The translations under genes were made by a program, and so were the position numbers. Shown in pieces: positions 1,745 to 40,617 of a stretch of 64,000 nucleotides of DNA. Under the pieces are notes generated by a model. That model had not been told where the DNA came from, made no database searches, and saw only the letters and a list, made by a program, of their open reading frames with translations. Position 1 is the stretch's first letter. Every line of letters starts with the position of its first letter. The DNA is taken from assembly GCA_964541085.1 (NCBI GenBank), contig CAZIPA010000006.1:4528-68527 (forward strand). Direction: 5' to 3'. The DNA is from an uncultured Oscillospiraceae bacterium. GTDB lineage: Bacteria; Bacillota; Clostridia; Oscillospirales; Butyricicoccaceae.

Positions 1745-3037
1745 TTACTGCTCCGTGATGTTTTTTTGCAGATCGGCCACTTTATTTTTCAAAAGCTCAT
1801 CCTCCTGCATGGCCGCCGTGAGCTTTTCCACGCCGTAAATCACAGAGGTGTGATGCTGGTTGAAGACCTTGCCGATCTCCGGATAGCTCATGCCGCCGAT
1901 CTCCCGCATGAGATAGCAGGCCACCTGCCGGGGAACCACGATCTCCTTGCTCCGGGCTTTGGAGGTGAGCCGGGACTGTTCAATGACAAAATAGTCCGCC
2001 ACTTCCTGCAGAATCATCTCCGGCGTGGGATGCAGACCGGGCTTTTCCTTGAAAATGTCCCGAATGGCCGTCTGGGCCAGCTCCATGTCAATGGGTTTGT
2101 TCATCAGCGTGTGAATGGCGGCGATTTTTTTCACCGCGCCCTCCAGCTCACGCACATTGTTGGTGATGTTCTCGGCAATGTAGGTGACCACCCGGGTGGG
2201 AATGGTGATGCCCATACCGGCGGCCTTGGCCTGAATCATGGCCATGCGGGTCTCCAGATCGGGACTCTGAATGTCCGCCATCAGACCGCTTTCAAACCGG
2301 GTGCGCAGACGGTCGTTCAGCGTGGCGATTTCCTTGGGCGGCCGGTCGGAGGTGAGCACGATCTGCTTGCCTGCCTGATACAGCGCCTCAAAGGTGTGGA
2401 AAAATTCCTCCTGCATCCGCACCTTGTTGGCGAGAAACTGTACATCGTCCATGAGCAGCAGGTCTACCTGCCGGTATTTCTGATAAAAATCCGCAAAGCC
2501 GGAGTTCAGCGCGGTCAGCAGATCGTTCATGAAATCCTCACTCTTGATGTAGAGAATGCGGAAGGTGGGATGGGTCTTGCGGATGTAGCCCGCAATGGCG
2601 AACAGCAGATGGGTCTTGCCCAGTCCGGAGCCGCCGTAAAGAAACAGCGGGTTGTACAGGGTGGCCGGCTGCTTTGCCACCGCCAGTGCCGCCGCGTGGG
2701 CAAACTGGTTGCTGCTGCCCACAATAAAGCGCTCAAAGGTGTAACCGGCGTAAACGCTGGTGTCGCTTTGCAGCCGCCAGCTGTCTGCCTCCGGGCCGAA
2801 GACATACAGAGGCCTGGTGGGTGCTTTCAAAAGATGAGAAATAATTTCCGAAACATTGTCGGTAAACTGGGCTGTCAGCGTCTCCTGAAACAGCTCGCTG
2901 GCCGCCTCGATGACAAAGCAGCCGTTTTGAATGGCGATGGGCCGGGCATCCTTGAACCAGGGATCCACGGTGATGGCTCCCAGCTCGTCCCGCAGCTGCC
3001 GCAGGGTTGCGTCCAGCAGGGCTTCGGGCGTATACAT
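1745..3037 (-). CDS. dnaA: Chromosomal replication initiator DnaA
   Basis: 430 aa. AAA+ Walker A GGSGLGKTHLL, Walker B LLLMDDVQF, C-terminal DNA-binding signature HTSVIYGVEK. GGAGG RBS. Confidence 0.95.
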   Translation of the reverse strand: MYTPEALLDATLRQLRDELGAITVDPWFKDARPIAIQNGCFVIEAASELFQETLTAQFTDNVSEIISHLLKAPTRPLYVFGPEADSWRLQSDTSVYAGYTFERFIVGSSNQFAHAAALAVAKQPATLYNPLFLYGGSGLGKTHLLFAIAGYIRKTHPTFRILYIKSEDFMNDLLTALNSGFADFYQKYRQVDLLLMDDVQFLANKVRMQEEFFHTFEALYQAGKQIVLTSDRPPKEIATLNDRLRTRFESGLMADIQSPDLETRMAMIQAKAAGMGITIPTRVVTYIAENITNNVRELEGAVKKIAAIHTLMNKPIDMELAQTAIRDIFKEKPGLHPTPEMILQEVADYFVIEQSRLTSKARSKEIVVPRQVACYLMREIGGMSYPEIGKVFNQHHTSVIYGVEKLTAAMQEDELLKNKVADLQKNITEQ

Positions 3038-3335
3038 GGCTGTGATTTCCTCCTTTTTTCTGTCTCTTTCCTTCTGGCTTTTTCCTCCGAAAATGAAAAA
3101 GCACGGCTGTCCGCGTCAGAAAAAAGCGCCCCCGCCCTCCGGTGCGTACATACCCTTCTCAGTATACCACACATATGATAAAAAGGAAAGTAAAAATTGC
3201 TGTGTTTTGCCCACGGATTTTCGCTCTGCGGGCCAAACAAAGACAGGGGAAGCTTTTCGCCGCCGGAACACTCTGTTGTTCCATTATAGCGCGTTTCCGT
3301 GCACAGAAAAAATGAAGCAGTTCACTTGACAGGTT

Positions 3336-3476
3336 CCCCGCAAAATCGAAGATTTTGCGGGGGCCACTTCAGATTTGACCGCCTCGGTCGCCCCGCTTCC
3401 GGGGCTTCCTGCGGCATGACGCCGCCACTCGGCGGCGGGGGCTTGCGCCTTTTTGCAAAATCGAAGATTTTGCGGG
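3336..3476 (+). repeat. Intergenic hairpin-cassette repeat, 'module B' copy 1
   Basis: Hairpins GCAAAATC-GAA-GATTTTGC (3340-3358, repeated at 3454-3472), GCCCCG-CTTC-CGGGGC (3390-3405) and CGCCGCC-ACTC-GGCGGCG (3420-3437). Homologous copies at 26636-26750 (inverted) and 34839-34958. Confidence 0.8.
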
Positions 3477-16074: not shown

Positions 16075-16207
16075 GCCGCCCCGTGTCGGCGTTGTGCCGT
16101 CTGAGGGATTGTTCTCTCGTCCCCCGTCCCTCACGCCCGCAGGCGCATCACGCACGAAGTGCGCATCACGCTGCGAAGCATCGCATCACGCCGCAAGGCG
16201 CATCACT
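16075..16207. repeat. Intergenic hairpin-cassette repeat ('module A', GCGCATCACG units)
   Basis: CCCGCAGGCGCATCACGCACGAAGTGCGCATCACGCTGCGAAGCATCGCATCACGCCGCAAGGCG. Near-identical to 18640-18715 and reverse-complementary to 22830-22905, 27045-27095 and 34505-34560. Confidence 0.8.
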
Positions 16208-18600: not shown

Positions 18601-18745
18601 GCTGGATGCTCGCCTGAGGGATTGTACTTCCGTCCCCCGTCTCCTCACGCCCGCAGGCGCATCACGCACGAAGTGCGCATCACGATGCGAAGCATCGCAT
18701 CACGCCGCAAGGCGGCGATATCACTGCGCCGTAAGGCGCCTCCCT
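18601..18745. repeat. Intergenic hairpin-cassette repeat (module A copy)
   Basis: Same GCGCATCACG-unit array as 16075-16207. Ends with GGCGATATCACTGCGCC. Confidence 0.8.
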
Positions 18746-22753: not shown

Positions 22754-22997
22754 AATGATATCGGCTTCGCCGGTGAAATCTTCTTCGAAGATGAAATCGC
22801 CTTGCGCCGGTGAAATCCCTGCGGGGATGGGAAGAAGTGATGCGCCTGCGGCGTGATGCGATGCCTTGCATCGTGATGCGCACTTCGTGCGTGATGCGCC
22901 TGCGGGCGTTGGGGACGGGGGCGAAAGGACAACCCTCTCAGTCACCTGCGGTGACAGCTCTCCCAGAAGGAGAGCCAAGCCGGGAGAGAGAGCCGCA
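22754..22997. repeat. Composite intergenic repeat (AATGATATC end, module A, GCTCTCCC hairpin module)
   Basis: Starts AATGATATCGGC. Contains ATCTTC-TTC-GAAGAT, the GTGATGCG unit array, GTCAC-CTGCG-GTGAC and GCTCTCC-CAGAA-GGAGAGC hairpins. Matches parts of 27290-27470. Confidence 0.8.
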
Positions 22998-24998: not shown

Positions 24999-26633
24999 TT
25001 GACCCTTCCACTCCTTTGCCCTATGCTCATGGGAAAAAGGAGTGGTTTTCTATTGTATGAGCAACTGTTGACGGATATCCCGGCAGAGCAGAGCAGCGTC
25101 TCCCGCCGGGAGCTTTGCGCCGGAGACCCGGCACTGTTTGGGCGCACCTATCTTTCCCATTATCTCACCCTGCCCACACCGACCTTTCACAAAAAGCTGT
25201 GCCGCCTGTGGCAAAAGCAGGTGATGAAGGGCCGCTGTCCCTCGCCGGAAGCCCTGCCGGAGATGCTGGAGGCCAAAGGCTGCCGTCTGGCCATCGCTGC
25301 GCCCCGGGGCCATGCCAAATCCACGGTGATGAGCTTGCAGAATGTGCTCCATGCGGCGCTGTACGGCTACAAAAAATACATTCTGCTGGTGTCGGACACC
25401 GAGGCCCAGGCCTCCTCCTTTCTGGAGGCGGTGAAGGCCGAGCTGGAGGACAATGAAGGGATTTTGCGGGATTTCGGCGATCTGCGGGGAAAGGTGTGGA
25501 AAAGCACGGTGATCCTGCTGCGCACGGGGGTGCGCATTGATGCGGTAGGCTCCGGGCAAAAGCTGCGGGGACGGCGGCACGGGGCACGCAGACCCGATCT
25601 GATTCTGCTGGACGATATCGAAAACGATCAGGAGGTGCTGTCTCCCGACGGACGGCGCAAGCTGGAGCGGTGGTTTTTCGGCGCAGTGAGCAAGGCGGGC
25701 GACCGCTATACGGACATTGTGTGCATCGGAACGGTGCTCCATCATGACAGTCTGCTGGTGCAGCTGCTGCACAATCCGGCCTATCAGAGCCTGTGTCTGC
25801 GGGCGGTGGAGCGGTTTTCCGACCATCCTCTGTGGAAGCGCTGGCGGAGCTATTATACCGACCTGTCCGATCCCCGGCGGGAAAAGACAGCGGAACGGTT
25901 TTTCCAGCGCCACCGGAAGGAGCTTCTGGAGGGAACCAAGGTGCTCTGGCCCAAAAAGCTGTCCTATTATGACCTGATGTGTATGCTGGTCAGCGAGGGC
26001 GAGGGCTCCTTTTACCGGGAGATGCAGAACACGCCCATGGATCCGGCCTCCTGTCTCTTCCCCCGGGAGTGGCTGAAATATTACAATCCGGCAGAGGTGG
26101 ATTTTTCCCGGGGCTTCCGGTTTTTCGGCTATTGCGATCCCAGTCTGGGCAAAACGGCGGAGTCGGATTTTTCGGCCATTCTCACGCTGGCGCAGAATGT
26201 GCGGACCGGCGTGATGTATGTGCTGGACGCGGACATTCTCCGGCGGCATCCCGATGGCATTATTCGGGATATTCTGGAAAAGGCCCGCTGGCTGCTGCGG
26301 GAATATGGCGGGCAATATACGGCCTTTGGCGCGGAGACCAACCAGTTTCAGTGGTTTCTCAAGGAGCGTCTGGCGGCGGAGAGTGCGGCGGCGGGGGTGT
26401 ATCTGCCCATTACCGAGGTGCGTTCGGCAGCGGACAAGACCCTGCGCATTCAGACCCTTCAGCCGGATGTGCGCAACGGCTATCTGCTGTTCCGGCCGGA
26501 GCAGGAGGAGCTTCTGCGCCAGCTGACCCAGTTTCCGCTGGCCCGCCACGACGACGGCCCGGACGCATTAGAGGGCGCGGTTCGGCTCTGTAAGCAGGGG
26601 ATGCGGTTGGGAACATTGAAGCTGCGGGTGTGA
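24999..26633 (+). CDS. Phage terminase large subunit-like protein (orphan)
   Basis: About 530-544 aa; the start is uncertain. ATPase Walker A-like APRGHAKST and Walker B LILLDDIEND. C-terminal RNaseH-like nuclease region (ARHDDGPDALEGA). No portal, capsid or small-terminase neighbours. Confidence 0.8.
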   Translation: MTLPLLCPMLMGKRSGFLLYEQLLTDIPAEQSSVSRRELCAGDPALFGRTYLSHYLTLPTPTFHKKLCRLWQKQVMKGRCPSPEALPEMLEAKGCRLAIAAPRGHAKSTVMSLQNVLHAALYGYKKYILLVSDTEAQASSFLEAVKAELEDNEGILRDFGDLRGKVWKSTVILLRTGVRIDAVGSGQKLRGRRHGARRPDLILLDDIENDQEVLSPDGRRKLERWFFGAVSKAGDRYTDIVCIGTVLHHDSLLVQLLHNPAYQSLCLRAVERFSDHPLWKRWRSYYTDLSDPRREKTAERFFQRHRKELLEGTKVLWPKKLSYYDLMCMLVSEGEGSFYREMQNTPMDPASCLFPREWLKYYNPAEVDFSRGFRFFGYCDPSLGKTAESDFSAILTLAQNVRTGVMYVLDADILRRHPDGIIRDILEKARWLLREYGGQYTAFGAETNQFQWFLKERLAAESAAAGVYLPITEVRSAADKTLRIQTLQPDVRNGYLLFRPEQEELLRQLTQFPLARHDDGPDALEGAVRLCKQGMRLGTLKLRV

Positions 26634-27470
26634 GGGCCGTCGTCCTTCGCCGCCCAGTGGCGGCGTCACGCCGCAGGAAGCCGCAGAAGTGCGGCGACCG
26701 AGGCGGTGAAATAAAAAGGGGCCCCCGCAAAACCTGTTTTGCGGGGAAACCGGCCCGGATGCACTGGAAGGTGCCGTGCGATTGTGCAAGCAGGGGATGC
26801 GGTTGGGGACATTGAAGCTGCGGGTATGAGGCAGCTGCGCCTTGCGGCTTGGCTCTCCCTCTGGGAGAGCTGGCGGCGCAGCCGTCTGAGAGGGTTTTCG
26901 CTGCAAACCATCCCACAGATTTTATCGCTCAATAATTTATAGCATAATCATCCCCTGCCGGGCAGCTTGCGCAGGGATCCTTCGCCGATGAGTGTCGGCG
27001 AGAGGCTACATCTGATGATATCCCTGCGGGGATGGGGGTGATGCACCTGTCGGCGTGATGCGCACTTCGTGCGTGATGCGCCTGCGGGCGTTGGAAGACG
27101 AGAGACGAAGGTACAATCCCTCAGTCGGCACTTCGTGCCGCCAGCTCCCTTTACACAAGGGCGCCTTGGATATTTGCGGAAGCAAACCGCCCTCGCCGGA
27201 GCCGCCCCTGTGTAAGGGGAGGTGGCAAAACCGCCGGTTTTGACGGAAGGGTTGTCACTGCGTCCGGCTGATTCAGCGGCAAATGTCCCCGCCTCCCTCG
27301 TCGGATGGAGCCAAGAACGGGGGGCGAAAGGACAACCCTCTCAGTCACCTGCGGTGACAGCTCTCCCAAAGGGAGAGCCAAGCCCGAAAACCTCACGGCG
27401 CAAGCCGATTTCATCTTCGCAGAAGATTTCACCGGCGCAAGGCGATATCATTGCGCCGTCAGGCGACAAC
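26634..27470. repeat. Largest composite repeat block (modules B-inverted, ghost gene end, D, C, A)
   Basis: About 840 bp non-coding. 26636-26750 is module B inverted. 26840-26990 is the reverse complement of 34945-35100. 27005-27100 is module A. 27290-27470 matches 22900-22990 and the inverted start of 22754-22810. Confidence 0.8.
26752..26829 (+). pseudogene. Ghost copy of the terminase 3' end (last 25 codons + stop)
   Basis: Encodes GPDALEGAVRLCKQGMRLGTLKLRV*, identical to the terminase C-terminus at 26556-26633. 11 of 26 codons differ and every difference is synonymous. No upstream ORF is attached. Confidence 0.8.
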
Positions 27471-34485: not shown

Positions 34486-35110
34486 GGCCAATGATATCGC
34501 CGCTTTGCGGCGTGATGCGATGCTTCGCATCGTGATGCGCACTTCGTGCGTGATGCGCCTGCGGGCGTGGGAAGACGGGGGACGAAGGGGTTTTTACTGC
34601 GTCCCGCTTCCTCAGAGGGCAGCCCCGCGGCGACTGAGCGGGCGTTAGGGGTGGAACTCTTCGTCCCCGCCGGGAGGCCGGAAGAGGTTTACGGGGAAAC
34701 TGGTTTCCCCGTCAGACCGCACGCAGCCCGCTATGCGGTGCTGCTACGGTGTTTCCGCAGAAACGCCTGCGGTCGAGGGGGGTATCGCAACACCCCTCCG
34801 CTGGCCTTTGGGTACTTTCGGCCACACGAAAGCACCATCCCCACAAAATCTTCGATTTTGCAGGGCCCCCGGTGGATTTAACCGCCTCGGTCGGCGCACT
34901 GCTGCGCCTCCCTGCGGCATGACGCCGCCACTGGGCTGCGAAGGCTTGCTGCGCAAGCTGCCCGGCAGGGGATGATAATGCTACAAAAATATTGAGCGAT
35001 AAAATCTGTGGGATTGTTTGCAGGTCTATTAAAAACCCTCTCAGTCGGCACACCGTGCCGCCAGCTCTCCCAGAGGGAGAGCCAAGCAGCGAAGAGCGGG
35101 CATCTCCGTT
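34486..35110. repeat. Composite repeat block (modules A, unique hairpin array, B, C, D)
   Basis: 34489-34570 is module A. 34570-34838 is a string of perfect hairpins (e.g. ACGGGGAAAC-TG-GTTTCCCCGT). 34839-34958 is module B. 34945-35100 is the inverted copy of 26840-26990. Confidence 0.8.
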
Positions 35111-39671: not shown

Positions 39672-39748
39672 GGACGATTAGCTCACTTGGCTAGAGCGCC
39701 TGTTTGACGTACAGGAGGTAACAGGTTCGATTCCTGTATCGTCCACCA
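39672..39748 (+). tRNA. tRNA-Val (anticodon GAC), CCA encoded
   Basis: Full cloverleaf read by hand. Acceptor GGACGAT/ATCGTCC, D stem GCTC/GAGC, anticodon stem CCTGT/ACAGG with loop TTGACGT, T stem ACAGG/CCTGT with TTCGATT loop, discriminator A plus CCA. Confidence 0.92.
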
Positions 39749-39811: not shown

Positions 39812-40498
39812 ATGGAATATTCCACGGTGCTGCCGGCGGTGTTTCTGTCCCGGCCCAACCGGTTTGTGGCCCGGGTGCTGCTGGAGGGCAGAGAGCACAC
39901 CGTTCATGTGAAAAATACCGGCCGCTGCCGGGAGCTGCTGCTGCCCGGGGCCCGGGTCTGGCTGACACCGGGGGAAAATCCCGCCAGAAAAACGGCCTAT
40001 GACCTCATCGCCGTGGAAAAGGGACAGACCCTCATCAATCTGGATTCCGCCGCCCCCAACCGGGTGTTTGGAGAATATGCCCGGCAGGGCCTGTTTTTGC
40101 CGGAGACGGCGTGGGTGCGTCCCGAGGTGCGCTATGGAGAGTCCCGGTTTGATTTTCAGCTGGAGGCCGGGGGCCGGCTGCATTTTGTGGAGGTCAAGGG
40201 GGTCACGCTGGAGGAGGCGGGACACACCCGCTTTCCCGACGCCCCTACCCTCCGGGGGACAAAGCATCTGTATGAGCTGATCCGTGCCCGGCAGGAGGGC
40301 TATGGCGCTCACGCGGTGTTTGTGATTCAGCTGGAGCAGGCCCTTTCCTTCGCCCCCAACCGGGAAACCGACCCGGCCTTTGCCCGTGCGCTGGAGCAGG
40401 CGGAGGCCGCCGGTGTGTGTATCCACGCCTTCCGCTGCCATGTCACCCCCGGCAGGATGAGCATCGCAGCGCCGGTAAAGCGGCAGGAGCCGCAATGA
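39812..40498 (+). CDS. sfsA: Sugar fermentation stimulation protein A
   Basis: 228 aa from ATG 39812 (GGAGG RBS). SfsA signature FLSRPNRFVA.V...G....VHV.NTGRC.ELL. Confidence 0.88.
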   Translation: MEYSTVLPAVFLSRPNRFVARVLLEGREHTVHVKNTGRCRELLLPGARVWLTPGENPARKTAYDLIAVEKGQTLINLDSAAPNRVFGEYARQGLFLPETAWVRPEVRYGESRFDFQLEAGGRLHFVEVKGVTLEEAGHTRFPDAPTLRGTKHLYELIRARQEGYGAHAVFVIQLEQALSFAPNRETDPAFARALEQAEAAGVCIHAFRCHVTPGRMSIAAPVKRQEPQ

Positions 40499-40587
40499 TA
40501 TCGGCTTCGCTATATTTTTCGGGCTTGGCTCTCCCAGAGGGAGAGCCAAGCTTGAAATACAAAGCGCCGCTCTGCGCCGATATCATT
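40494..40587. repeat. 94-bp MITE-like element with perfect 12-bp terminal inverted repeats
   Basis: Left end AATGATATCGGC (40494-40505), right end GCCGATATCATT (40576-40587). Central perfect palindrome GGCTTGGCTCTCCC-AGA-GGGAGAGCCAAGC (40522-40551). The left TIR contains the sfsA stop codon. Confidence 0.7.
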
Positions 40588-40590
40588 CAA

Positions 40591-40617
40591 AAAAAGCTCC
40601 CCTTGTGGGGAGCTTTT
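40591..40617. terminator. Bidirectional terminator (AAAGCTCCCC family)
   Basis: AAAAAGCTCCCC-TTGT-GGGGAGCTTTT, with A/T runs on both sides, between the convergent sfsA and EIIC-like genes. Confidence 0.75.

Follow-up and report, generated by a model that had tools for sequence, protein, structure and literature searches.

Module B, a hairpin cassette of Clostridia with stems under selection and, in its simple form, a duplicated gene end

Whether a small intergenic repeat is kept for the structure that it forms, or is a dead sequence in decay, is the question raised by an element that we call module B. The original prediction, made on a 64,000-nucleotide stretch of DNA (hereafter the window), placed three copies at 3336-3450 (+), 26636-26750 (-) and 34839-34958 (+), which are their correct coordinates, and read the differences between their stems as compensatory changes made under selection on structure. 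The window corresponds to C6:4528-68527 of a 1.94-Mb genome (G000) that is assembled in 68 contigs, has 57.7% G+C and is 98.5% complete. Pairwise identity among the three copies is 78-86%, and the 17-mer CCTGCGGCATGACGCCG occurs three times in the window when up to two mismatches are allowed, against 0.04 occurrences expected by chance.

The module B unit is 105-125 bases long and has four hairpins. Its consensus starts with (T)CCCCRCAAAAYC-loop-GRTTTTGYGGGG-GCCCC, passes through a T-rich linker and continues as ACCGCCTCGGTCGSCGCA-CTKC-TGCGSCTYCCTGCGGCATGACGCCGMC-ACTS-GKCGGCG-GGG(-GCTTGC-TGC-GCAAGC). H1 is a 12-bp stem (CCCCRCAAAAYC...GRTTTTGYGGGG) closed by a CCCC/GGGG clamp. H2 is a long hairpin, for which the inner variants first quoted (GCCCCG/CGGGGC, GCCGCA/TGCGGC and GGCGCA/TGCGCC) are accurate, but the flanking segments that had been taken for conserved single-stranded linkers in fact pair with each other (GCC-T-CGG with CTG-C-GGC) and form its base; this paired base is recovered by single-sequence folds of copies 1 and 2, and the outer helix covaries in other genera. 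H3 was quoted correctly as CGCCGCC-ACTS-GGCGGCG, with a loop conserved as ACTC or ACTG, although its stem is not intact in all copies as had been supposed, given a disrupting G>T in copy 3 (GGGCTGCG). The fourth hairpin, H4 (GCTTGC-TGC-GCAAGC), is found in 16 of the 30 copies in the genome, copy 3 among them. Outside the stems, the conserved motifs are the H3 loop ACTC and GGGGNCCCC after H1.

In the window, the core of copy 1 occupies 3334-3437 (+), with H1 at 3336-3347/3351-3362 around a GAA loop, H2 at 3381-3415 (outer helix GCC.CGG/CTG.GGC, inner GCCCCG-CTTC-CGGGGC) and H3 at 3420-3426/3431-3437 around an ACTC loop. It sits in the divergent spacer and promoter region between dnaA (1745-3037, -) and the Ubl operon (3615 onward, +), and a solo H1-type hairpin, GCAAAATC-GAA-GATTTTGC, follows directly at 3455-3476 (+). 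The GAA loop of copy 1 (3348-3350) is the exact reverse complement of the usual TTC (34851-34853 in copy 3) on the same stem, a signature of intra-hairpin template switching. The Ubl operon, encoding an identical Ubl protein, occurs in two contexts, beside dnaA as here and beside an M20-peptidase region, and in both the homology starts just downstream of an H1-type hairpin (L046-L048, about 2920-2960); solo H1 hairpins may thus mark the edge of a mobile Ubl island.

Copy 2 lies on the opposite strand, antisense to its upstream gene, with a core at 26648-26748 (-) made up of H1 (26746-26737/26732-26723, loop CAGG), H2 (26704-26670) and H3 (26665-26659/26654-26648, loop ACTG). Copy 3 (34837-34958, +) is embedded in a mosaic of other repeat modules and has H1 at 34839-34850/34854-34865, H2 at 34884-34918, H3 at 34923-34929/34934-34940 with one G>T mismatch, and H4 (GCTTGC-TGC-GCAAGC) at 34944-34949/34953-34958. 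The modules that form mosaics with module B include GCGTGATGCG-type hairpin arrays, GCTCTCCCAGAGGGAGAGCCAAG and AAAATATTGAGCGATAAAATCTGTGGGAT; other repeat modules were located at 16094-16207, 18601-18745, 22754-22997, 26837-27470, 34486-34584, 34986-35110 and 40494-40617, several pairs of them sharing 85-100% identity in both orientations.

In G000 as a whole, an iterated nhmmer search gave 30 full-length and about 8 partial copies of module B. None of the 30 lies within a gene, and at 10 loci a stop codon is 11-49 nt away, as judged outside the window from a simple gene caller trained on codon-position GC, which reproduces the window's known genes and is consistent with existing gene calls. 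Copies occur singly, in mosaics with other modules, or in head-to-tail arrays with a period of about 118 nt. Five such arrays of two to three units, with periods of 117-123 nt, were found in G000: three-unit arrays at C23:13390-13734 and C31:5704-6046, and further arrays at C25:6987-7210, C10:33134-33359 and C15:26610-27040. In internal array units the CCCC of the H1 clamp becomes AAAC, because the H4 of the preceding unit abuts H1.

The G000 copies served to build a covariance model, which was then run on other genomes. Within the same family, 27 of the 61 genomes sampled, from 14 of 27 genera, proved to carry multi-copy relatives, the richest genome having 36 copies; outside the family matches appeared in 5 of 77 genomes of the order, each of them single and weak. 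When 185,579 species genomes were scanned for exact 20-mers, single chance matches turned up in unrelated G+C-rich genomes, and four matches in Oscillospiraceae/Ruminococcus do not fit the covariance model; the sequence of module B varies too much from species to species to be traced by exact words. In other strains, contigs end inside the element at one and the same base each time, which is what a dispersed repeat should produce. In the Rfam search that the original prediction had proposed as a check, no known family matches module B: a scan of the whole window with Rfam 15 at the gathering threshold gave tRNA only, and at E≤10 copy 1 and nine foreign copies gave chance matches of 12-21 bits, compared with gathering scores of 39-216. 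The sole gathering-level match in the window is a tRNA gene at 39672-39745 (64.7 bits). These small non-coding hairpin cassettes are real and form a lineage-wide family that is apparently undescribed.

Is the structure of this family under selection? Pairing holds in 94.4% of cells across the 30 G000 copies, a share that drops to 41-52% once the partner column is slid, and nine pairs carry changes on both sides, compared with 4.2 in shuffled alignments, none of 500 shuffles reaching nine. Among 92 copies from other genera 96% of cells are paired (about 48% with the partner slid) and 27 of 31 pairs have both-side changes; in the outer H2 helix of these copies one pair is found as AU 25 times, CG 21 times and GC 13 times, and another as CG 32 times and UA 17 times. 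As the 92-copy alignment had been fitted to the model, the test was repeated with MAFFT and RNAalifold. From a MAFFT-only alignment of 37 sequences, de novo RNAalifold recovered H1, H3 and the core of H2, and 12 of the 20 pairs were compensatory.

Five pairs of orthologous copies from sister species show how the stems change. Here 142 of 155 base pairs are unchanged; 5 pairs changed on both sides, 7 changed on one side and still pair, and 1 is broken. Pairing thus survives at 12 of the 13 changed base pairs and at 154 of 155 overall, while 89 of 298 unpaired aligned columns (30%) changed, so that stem change is about five times slower than change in unpaired columns. Covariation, the general mark of a structured RNA, was therefore seen in the own-genome, foreign, MAFFT-only and orthologous sets alike. 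The compensatory changes proposed from three copies are real, they exceed chance by far, and the structure is kept in these larger and more divergent samples. The orthologous, cross-genus and own-genome pairing tests show that module B is not a decaying dead repeat, which bears out the earlier proposal on this point: its stems are conserved by purifying selection and are not merely inherited.

The flanks of copy 2 raise the further question of how the cassette comes to lie where it does. Copy 2 is bounded by an 81-nt direct repeat, of which one copy, at 26555-26635 (+), is the real 3′ end of a terminase-like gene (25053-26633), comprising its last 25 codons, the TGA and 2 nt, and the other, at 26751-26831 (+), is a duplicate of this gene end (a 'ghost') that begins 3 nt from the H1 side of the element. 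The original prediction had missed this duplicated gene end, which is the main feature of the anatomy. In its simple form module B directly follows a stop codon and runs antisense to the gene that ends there. Five G000 copies have this position, after the terminase-like gene, a dppA-like gene, alr, pth and prfB, and at each of them a direct duplicate of the last 27-107 nt of the gene lies on the far side of the element. Duplicated ends were also found at 7 of 7 tested copies in the congener G011, about 3 of 6 in G008, 4 of 6 in G002 and about 3 of 6 in G086, which belongs to another genus; in G070 and G064, from two other genera, the tested copies had no duplicated flank.

Altogether 20 duplicated-end loci in five genomes share one fixed geometry, in which the element is antisense to the gene throughout. 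Read in the orientation of the gene, the order is gene...x|y z STOP, a tail with an inverted copy of x y, H4′ H3′ H2′ H1′, a gap of 0-4 nt, the ghost (y z STOP) and then the original downstream DNA, which is a terminator, a promoter or the ribosome-binding site of the next gene. At its outer edge the duplication comes to within 0-3 nt of the stop codon at 10 or more loci. Usually 8-17 nt of gene sequence from across the inner edge x|y recur in inverted form in the tail, and this inverted copy scores above the 95th percentile of mismatched controls at 12 of 20 loci, although at copy 2 the footprint is weak (GGGCCG/CGGCCC). The genes with affected ends number dozens and are housekeeping genes (alr, pth, prfB, secA-like, nusA-like).

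Some further properties of these loci may be recorded here. On the element strand, roughly half of the loci have TC at the start of the gene sequence that lies just beyond the inner edge of the duplication (T at 10 of 20 loci, C at 14 of 20), and the duplicated segment ends in G or C; this may be a weak target preference or microhomology with the TTCCCC end of the element. The distance from real end to ghost is a multiple of three in 11 of the 20 loci (G000 C6, C13, C14, C19, C36; L178-L205), and at 8 of these 11 one can read on in frame past the real stop, across the element and into the ghost. A translated open reading frame running through the element is nonetheless probably not conserved, since two different frames are used for the conserved H1 region (GAPAK... 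or GPPQN...).

Comparison of ghosts with real ends shows that the ghosts evolve like coding DNA. At 13 loci in five genomes the two differ by 62 synonymous, 3 non-synonymous and 1 non-coding changes, a tally that includes a hand-corrected reading frame at one locus (L205). In the case of copy 2, ghost and real end are 84% identical and all 13 differences are synonymous. The synonymous share expected for random changes is 22%, rising to 36% if only the ghost is neutral and the real end is constrained; under this latter model the probability is about 4e-17 for the 55:8 tally obtained before the frame correction at L205 and below 1e-17 for the corrected 62:3. Gene conversion alone can be ruled out as the origin of the ghosts by reasoning from these counts, because it predicts more non-synonymous than synonymous differences.

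When compared with orthologues, real end and ghost are equidistant. Within the repeats, a block identical between both copies is found on the gene-interior side at alr and on the stop-proximal side at copy 2. At orthologous filled sites in sister species (G011/G002 at four genes, G000/G008 at the dppA-like gene), the repeats are 97-100% identical within each genome and different between species, which implies either turnover or selection that is continuing. Two readings fit the 62:3 bias: the capture of an allele from elsewhere, or selection on the ghost for complementarity to the mRNA.

The site at alr is empty in 13 other species of the genus, and homologues of the copy-2 gene with 88% identity have no element and are followed by an ordinary terminator. 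Within species no empty/filled polymorphism was found, every strain with an identical protein being filled. The arrangement of gene end, element and ghost is no product of assembly, since at the copy-2 and alr loci 521 of 521 bases are identical in independent assemblies.

In our preferred reading, which we hold to be probable without being assured of it, module B is a hairpin cassette of gene 3′ ends, similar in kind to REP/BIME and BOX elements, with stems under selection and no transposase of its own, that originates by a copy-choice or target-primed event and spreads by recombination. At the 3′ ends of genes its hairpins would act at the level of DNA or of read-through RNA from either strand, and might serve as a barrier or stabiliser for transcripts or as a protein-binding site; on this account the cassette would not be a strand-specific RNA gene. 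Each new site would be made by a rare event of copy choice or target priming in which the last 27-107 nt of the target are duplicated, a mechanism of first insertion that we put forward as conjecture. Once made, a filled site would spread, and be renewed, among related strains and species by homologous recombination (allele capture), leaving the recipient's own and until then functional gene end behind as the ghost. Which of the two repeats pairs with the recipient would set the side of the identical block, as in alr versus copy 2. Allele capture would explain why ghost and real end differ almost exclusively at synonymous positions, as well as the alternation of identical and diverged blocks within the repeats. 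Recombinational spread would have to involve repeated turnover, because filled orthologous sites match within a genome and differ between species.

The main rival, which we regard as unlikely though worth serious attention, is that module B is a strand-specific regulatory RNA made up of guide and scaffold. The ghost would be a 27-107-nt antisense 'guide' to the 3′ end of the neighbouring mRNA, H1-H4 would form the body, and the inverted copy in the tail would close the domain. A ghost that is kept complementary to the mRNA would accumulate only the synonymous changes of the gene and so would also yield the 62:3 ratio. The covarying stems and conserved loop motifs are consistent with such an RNA, as is the fact that the element is antisense in 20 of 20 duplicated-end loci with the ghost directly abutting H1; this single orientation counts against the cassette reading.

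The strand signals are mixed. At one stem position the element strand forms a G-U pair in 26 of the 30 G000 copies and in 38 foreign copies, a consistency that favours the element strand, supports an antisense RNA and counts against a strand-neutral cassette. Both strands fold about equally well (z-scores of -2.0 to -4.2), and the counts of G-T and A-C mismatches (70 versus 48) give no strand signal, being dominated by two positions that point in opposite ways. On the element strand H1 with CCCCTTTTT is weakly terminator-like; in a loose terminator scan, H1 with the (G)CCCC and T-rich run that follow it was accepted in copy 2 alone and failed in copy 1, and on the opposite strand a T-tract is absent after every hairpin. 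At co-directional G000 loci the element is sense to transcription at 8 and antisense at 8, an 8:8 orientation that speaks against an antisense RNA. So do the 17 of 22 G000 loci without a ghost, the lack of a conserved promoter upstream of the ghost, the head-to-tail arrays and mosaics that are unlike an sRNA gene, the identity of just 76-87% between some ghosts and their targets, and the absence of an Rfam relative. A broader version, that cassette and ghost together are an undescribed element that targets stop codons and copies the gene end by way of a guide-like inverted copy, either as an antisense regulator or as a reversible insertion made without a transposase, seems to us doubtful as well.

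How, then, does the cassette relate to known systems? Module B is of the general kind of the REP/BIME, BOX and NIME repeats, but is a member of none of them. The BOX elements of Streptococcus pneumoniae are modular, with the organisation boxA-boxB(n)-boxC. We know of no report of duplicated gene 3′ ends or of an inverted target footprint for BOX or NIME elements. Both resemble module B as modular, Firmicute-style intergenic cassettes of several stem-loops whose internal units can repeat in tandem, that have no transposase of their own and for which movement or exchange by recombination has been proposed; they differ from it in that module B has no match to them in sequence or architecture. NIME/dRS3 are the Neisseria intergenic mosaic elements (PMC3733652).

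In the REP/BIME repeats of Enterobacteria and Pseudomonas, REPINs are mobilised by RAYT transposases (PMC3116915, PMC3333891). Module B shares the broad features of this class, being high-copy, extragenic, hairpin-forming, found in both orientations and clustered with other motifs: both are palindromic repeats at gene 3′ ends, both form mosaics, and in both the hairpin is kept more than the sequence. Module B differs in having four different hairpins, as opposed to one 20-40-nt palindrome or an inverted pair, in having neither a GTAG tag nor a RAYT in copy-rich genomes, in its long duplications of target gene ends and in its occurrence in Clostridia; the string 'Clostridi' is absent from the text of a survey of REP families (PMC3733652). 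We rejected an identity with REP/REPIN on the ground that the unit is 105-125 nt with four distinct hairpins and not a single tagged palindrome of 20-40 nt, and that its arrays are head-to-tail and not inverted, with only the GACG beside H3 resembling a tag.

REPs with a CGTC tag are single hairpins with 8-9-bp stems that start A-T and a CCA tail, mostly from alpha-Proteobacteria (PMC3733652). Like module B they have no dedicated transposase, and by eye H3 (GACG-CCGRC-ACTC-GYCGG-CG) carries the complement of their tag at one end, whereas the single-hairpin form, the A-T stem start and the CCA tail are not seen in module B. The diversity-generating retroelements (DGRs) are a more distant comparison. 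There too the last ~30-130 nt of a gene recur almost unchanged just downstream of it, beside a hairpin-forming element, but module B has no adjacent reverse transcriptase or Avd, the reverse transcriptase is wholly absent from most element-carrying genomes, and dozens of housekeeping genes are involved. A DGR origin of the ghosts was also rejected on the differences themselves, which are of all base types and not at adenines, with 62 of 65 coding ones synonymous.

Elements that integrate at the 3′ end of a gene and bring a replacement copy with them are exemplified by islands in tRNA genes and by the mobile ORFs in atp6 and similar genes of fungal mitochondria, and 'minimal mobile elements' are exchanged by way of flanking homology. 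As in our reading of module B, the displaced original gene end persists as a silent copy beyond the insert, the two ends differ like alleles of two lineages and spread is through homology with the conserved gene. By contrast, the insert of module B is about 110-190 nt, non-coding and without integrase or endonuclease, and the same small cassette affects many different genes.

The enzymes found in the genus bear on the readings that would have module B moved by a mobile-element protein. The Y1 transposase (PF01797) is present only in G001, G002, G010, G014 and G016, which have few or no copies, and a RAYT/IS200 transposase was set aside as partner given that it does not co-occur with the element. 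A reverse transcriptase is found in 4 of 17 genomes of the genus, not adjacent to the element, and was likewise set aside for want of co-occurrence. The single reverse-transcriptase (RVT_1) gene of G000, at C22:5376-5963 with a 416-aa open frame, is near no examined copy.

We consider it very unlikely that module B is a miniature element driven by a transposase, whether a REP/REPIN moved by RAYT, an IS200/IS605-derived PATE or a MITE. The element is high-copy, intergenic, palindromic and clustered, as such an element would be, and the GACG before H3 complements the CGTC tag found in one REP superfamily (PMC3733652). However, no Y1 transposase (PF01797) is encoded in G000, G006, G008, G009 or G011, the unit is 3-5 times the length of a REP, and no terminal inverted repeats extend beyond a 6-nt GC clamp, nor is there a short target duplication of fixed length. 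A MITE was rejected for these last reasons, the ends sharing only the CCCCGC/GCGGGG clamp and the flanking duplications varying from 27 to 107 nt.

A SINE-like retro-element, whose target-primed reverse transcription would leave long variable duplications and inverted segments, is a reading to which we give very little weight. The duplications do vary in length, an inverted copy of the target does lie at one end, and G000 does have one reverse-transcriptase gene, but reverse transcriptase (PF00078) is missing from G011, G002, G009 and G006, which bear many copies of the element with near-perfect duplications, and an A-rich or other 3′ tail is absent.

Least probable of all, and already largely refuted, is a dead or neutral palindrome whose compensatory changes come from template switching or gene conversion and whose ghosts are assembly artefacts: the free reassortment of stem variants among copies within one genome, the exact loop inversion of copy 1 (GAA versus TTC) and the contigs of other strains that break inside the element speak in its favour, but sister-species orthologues keep 154 of 155 pairs while 30% of unpaired columns changed, the architecture is kept across 14 genera despite different stem sequences, the duplicated structures are identical base for base in independent assemblies, and one fixed geometry recurs at 20 loci in five genomes.

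Small structured intergenic repeats are well studied in Proteobacteria and streptococci. For the gut Clostridia, which are abundant and mostly uncultured, we found no description of such a repeat in Rfam, a REP-family review and full-text literature searches, and the same sources gave no description of module B itself or of long duplications linked to stop codons. The module B family provides a clean case of structure conserved across genera, and it breaks metagenome assemblies at predictable points. The insertion footprint is unexplained and probably novel: a duplicated, 'coding-like' gene end that stands outside the gene, together with an inverted copy of the target, is unusual and points to a route of insertion or recombination beyond the usual transposase models. 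If the ghost and its scaffold are functional, they would be a new way in which regulation is tied to the 3′ ends of housekeeping genes, alr, pth, prfB and secA among them.
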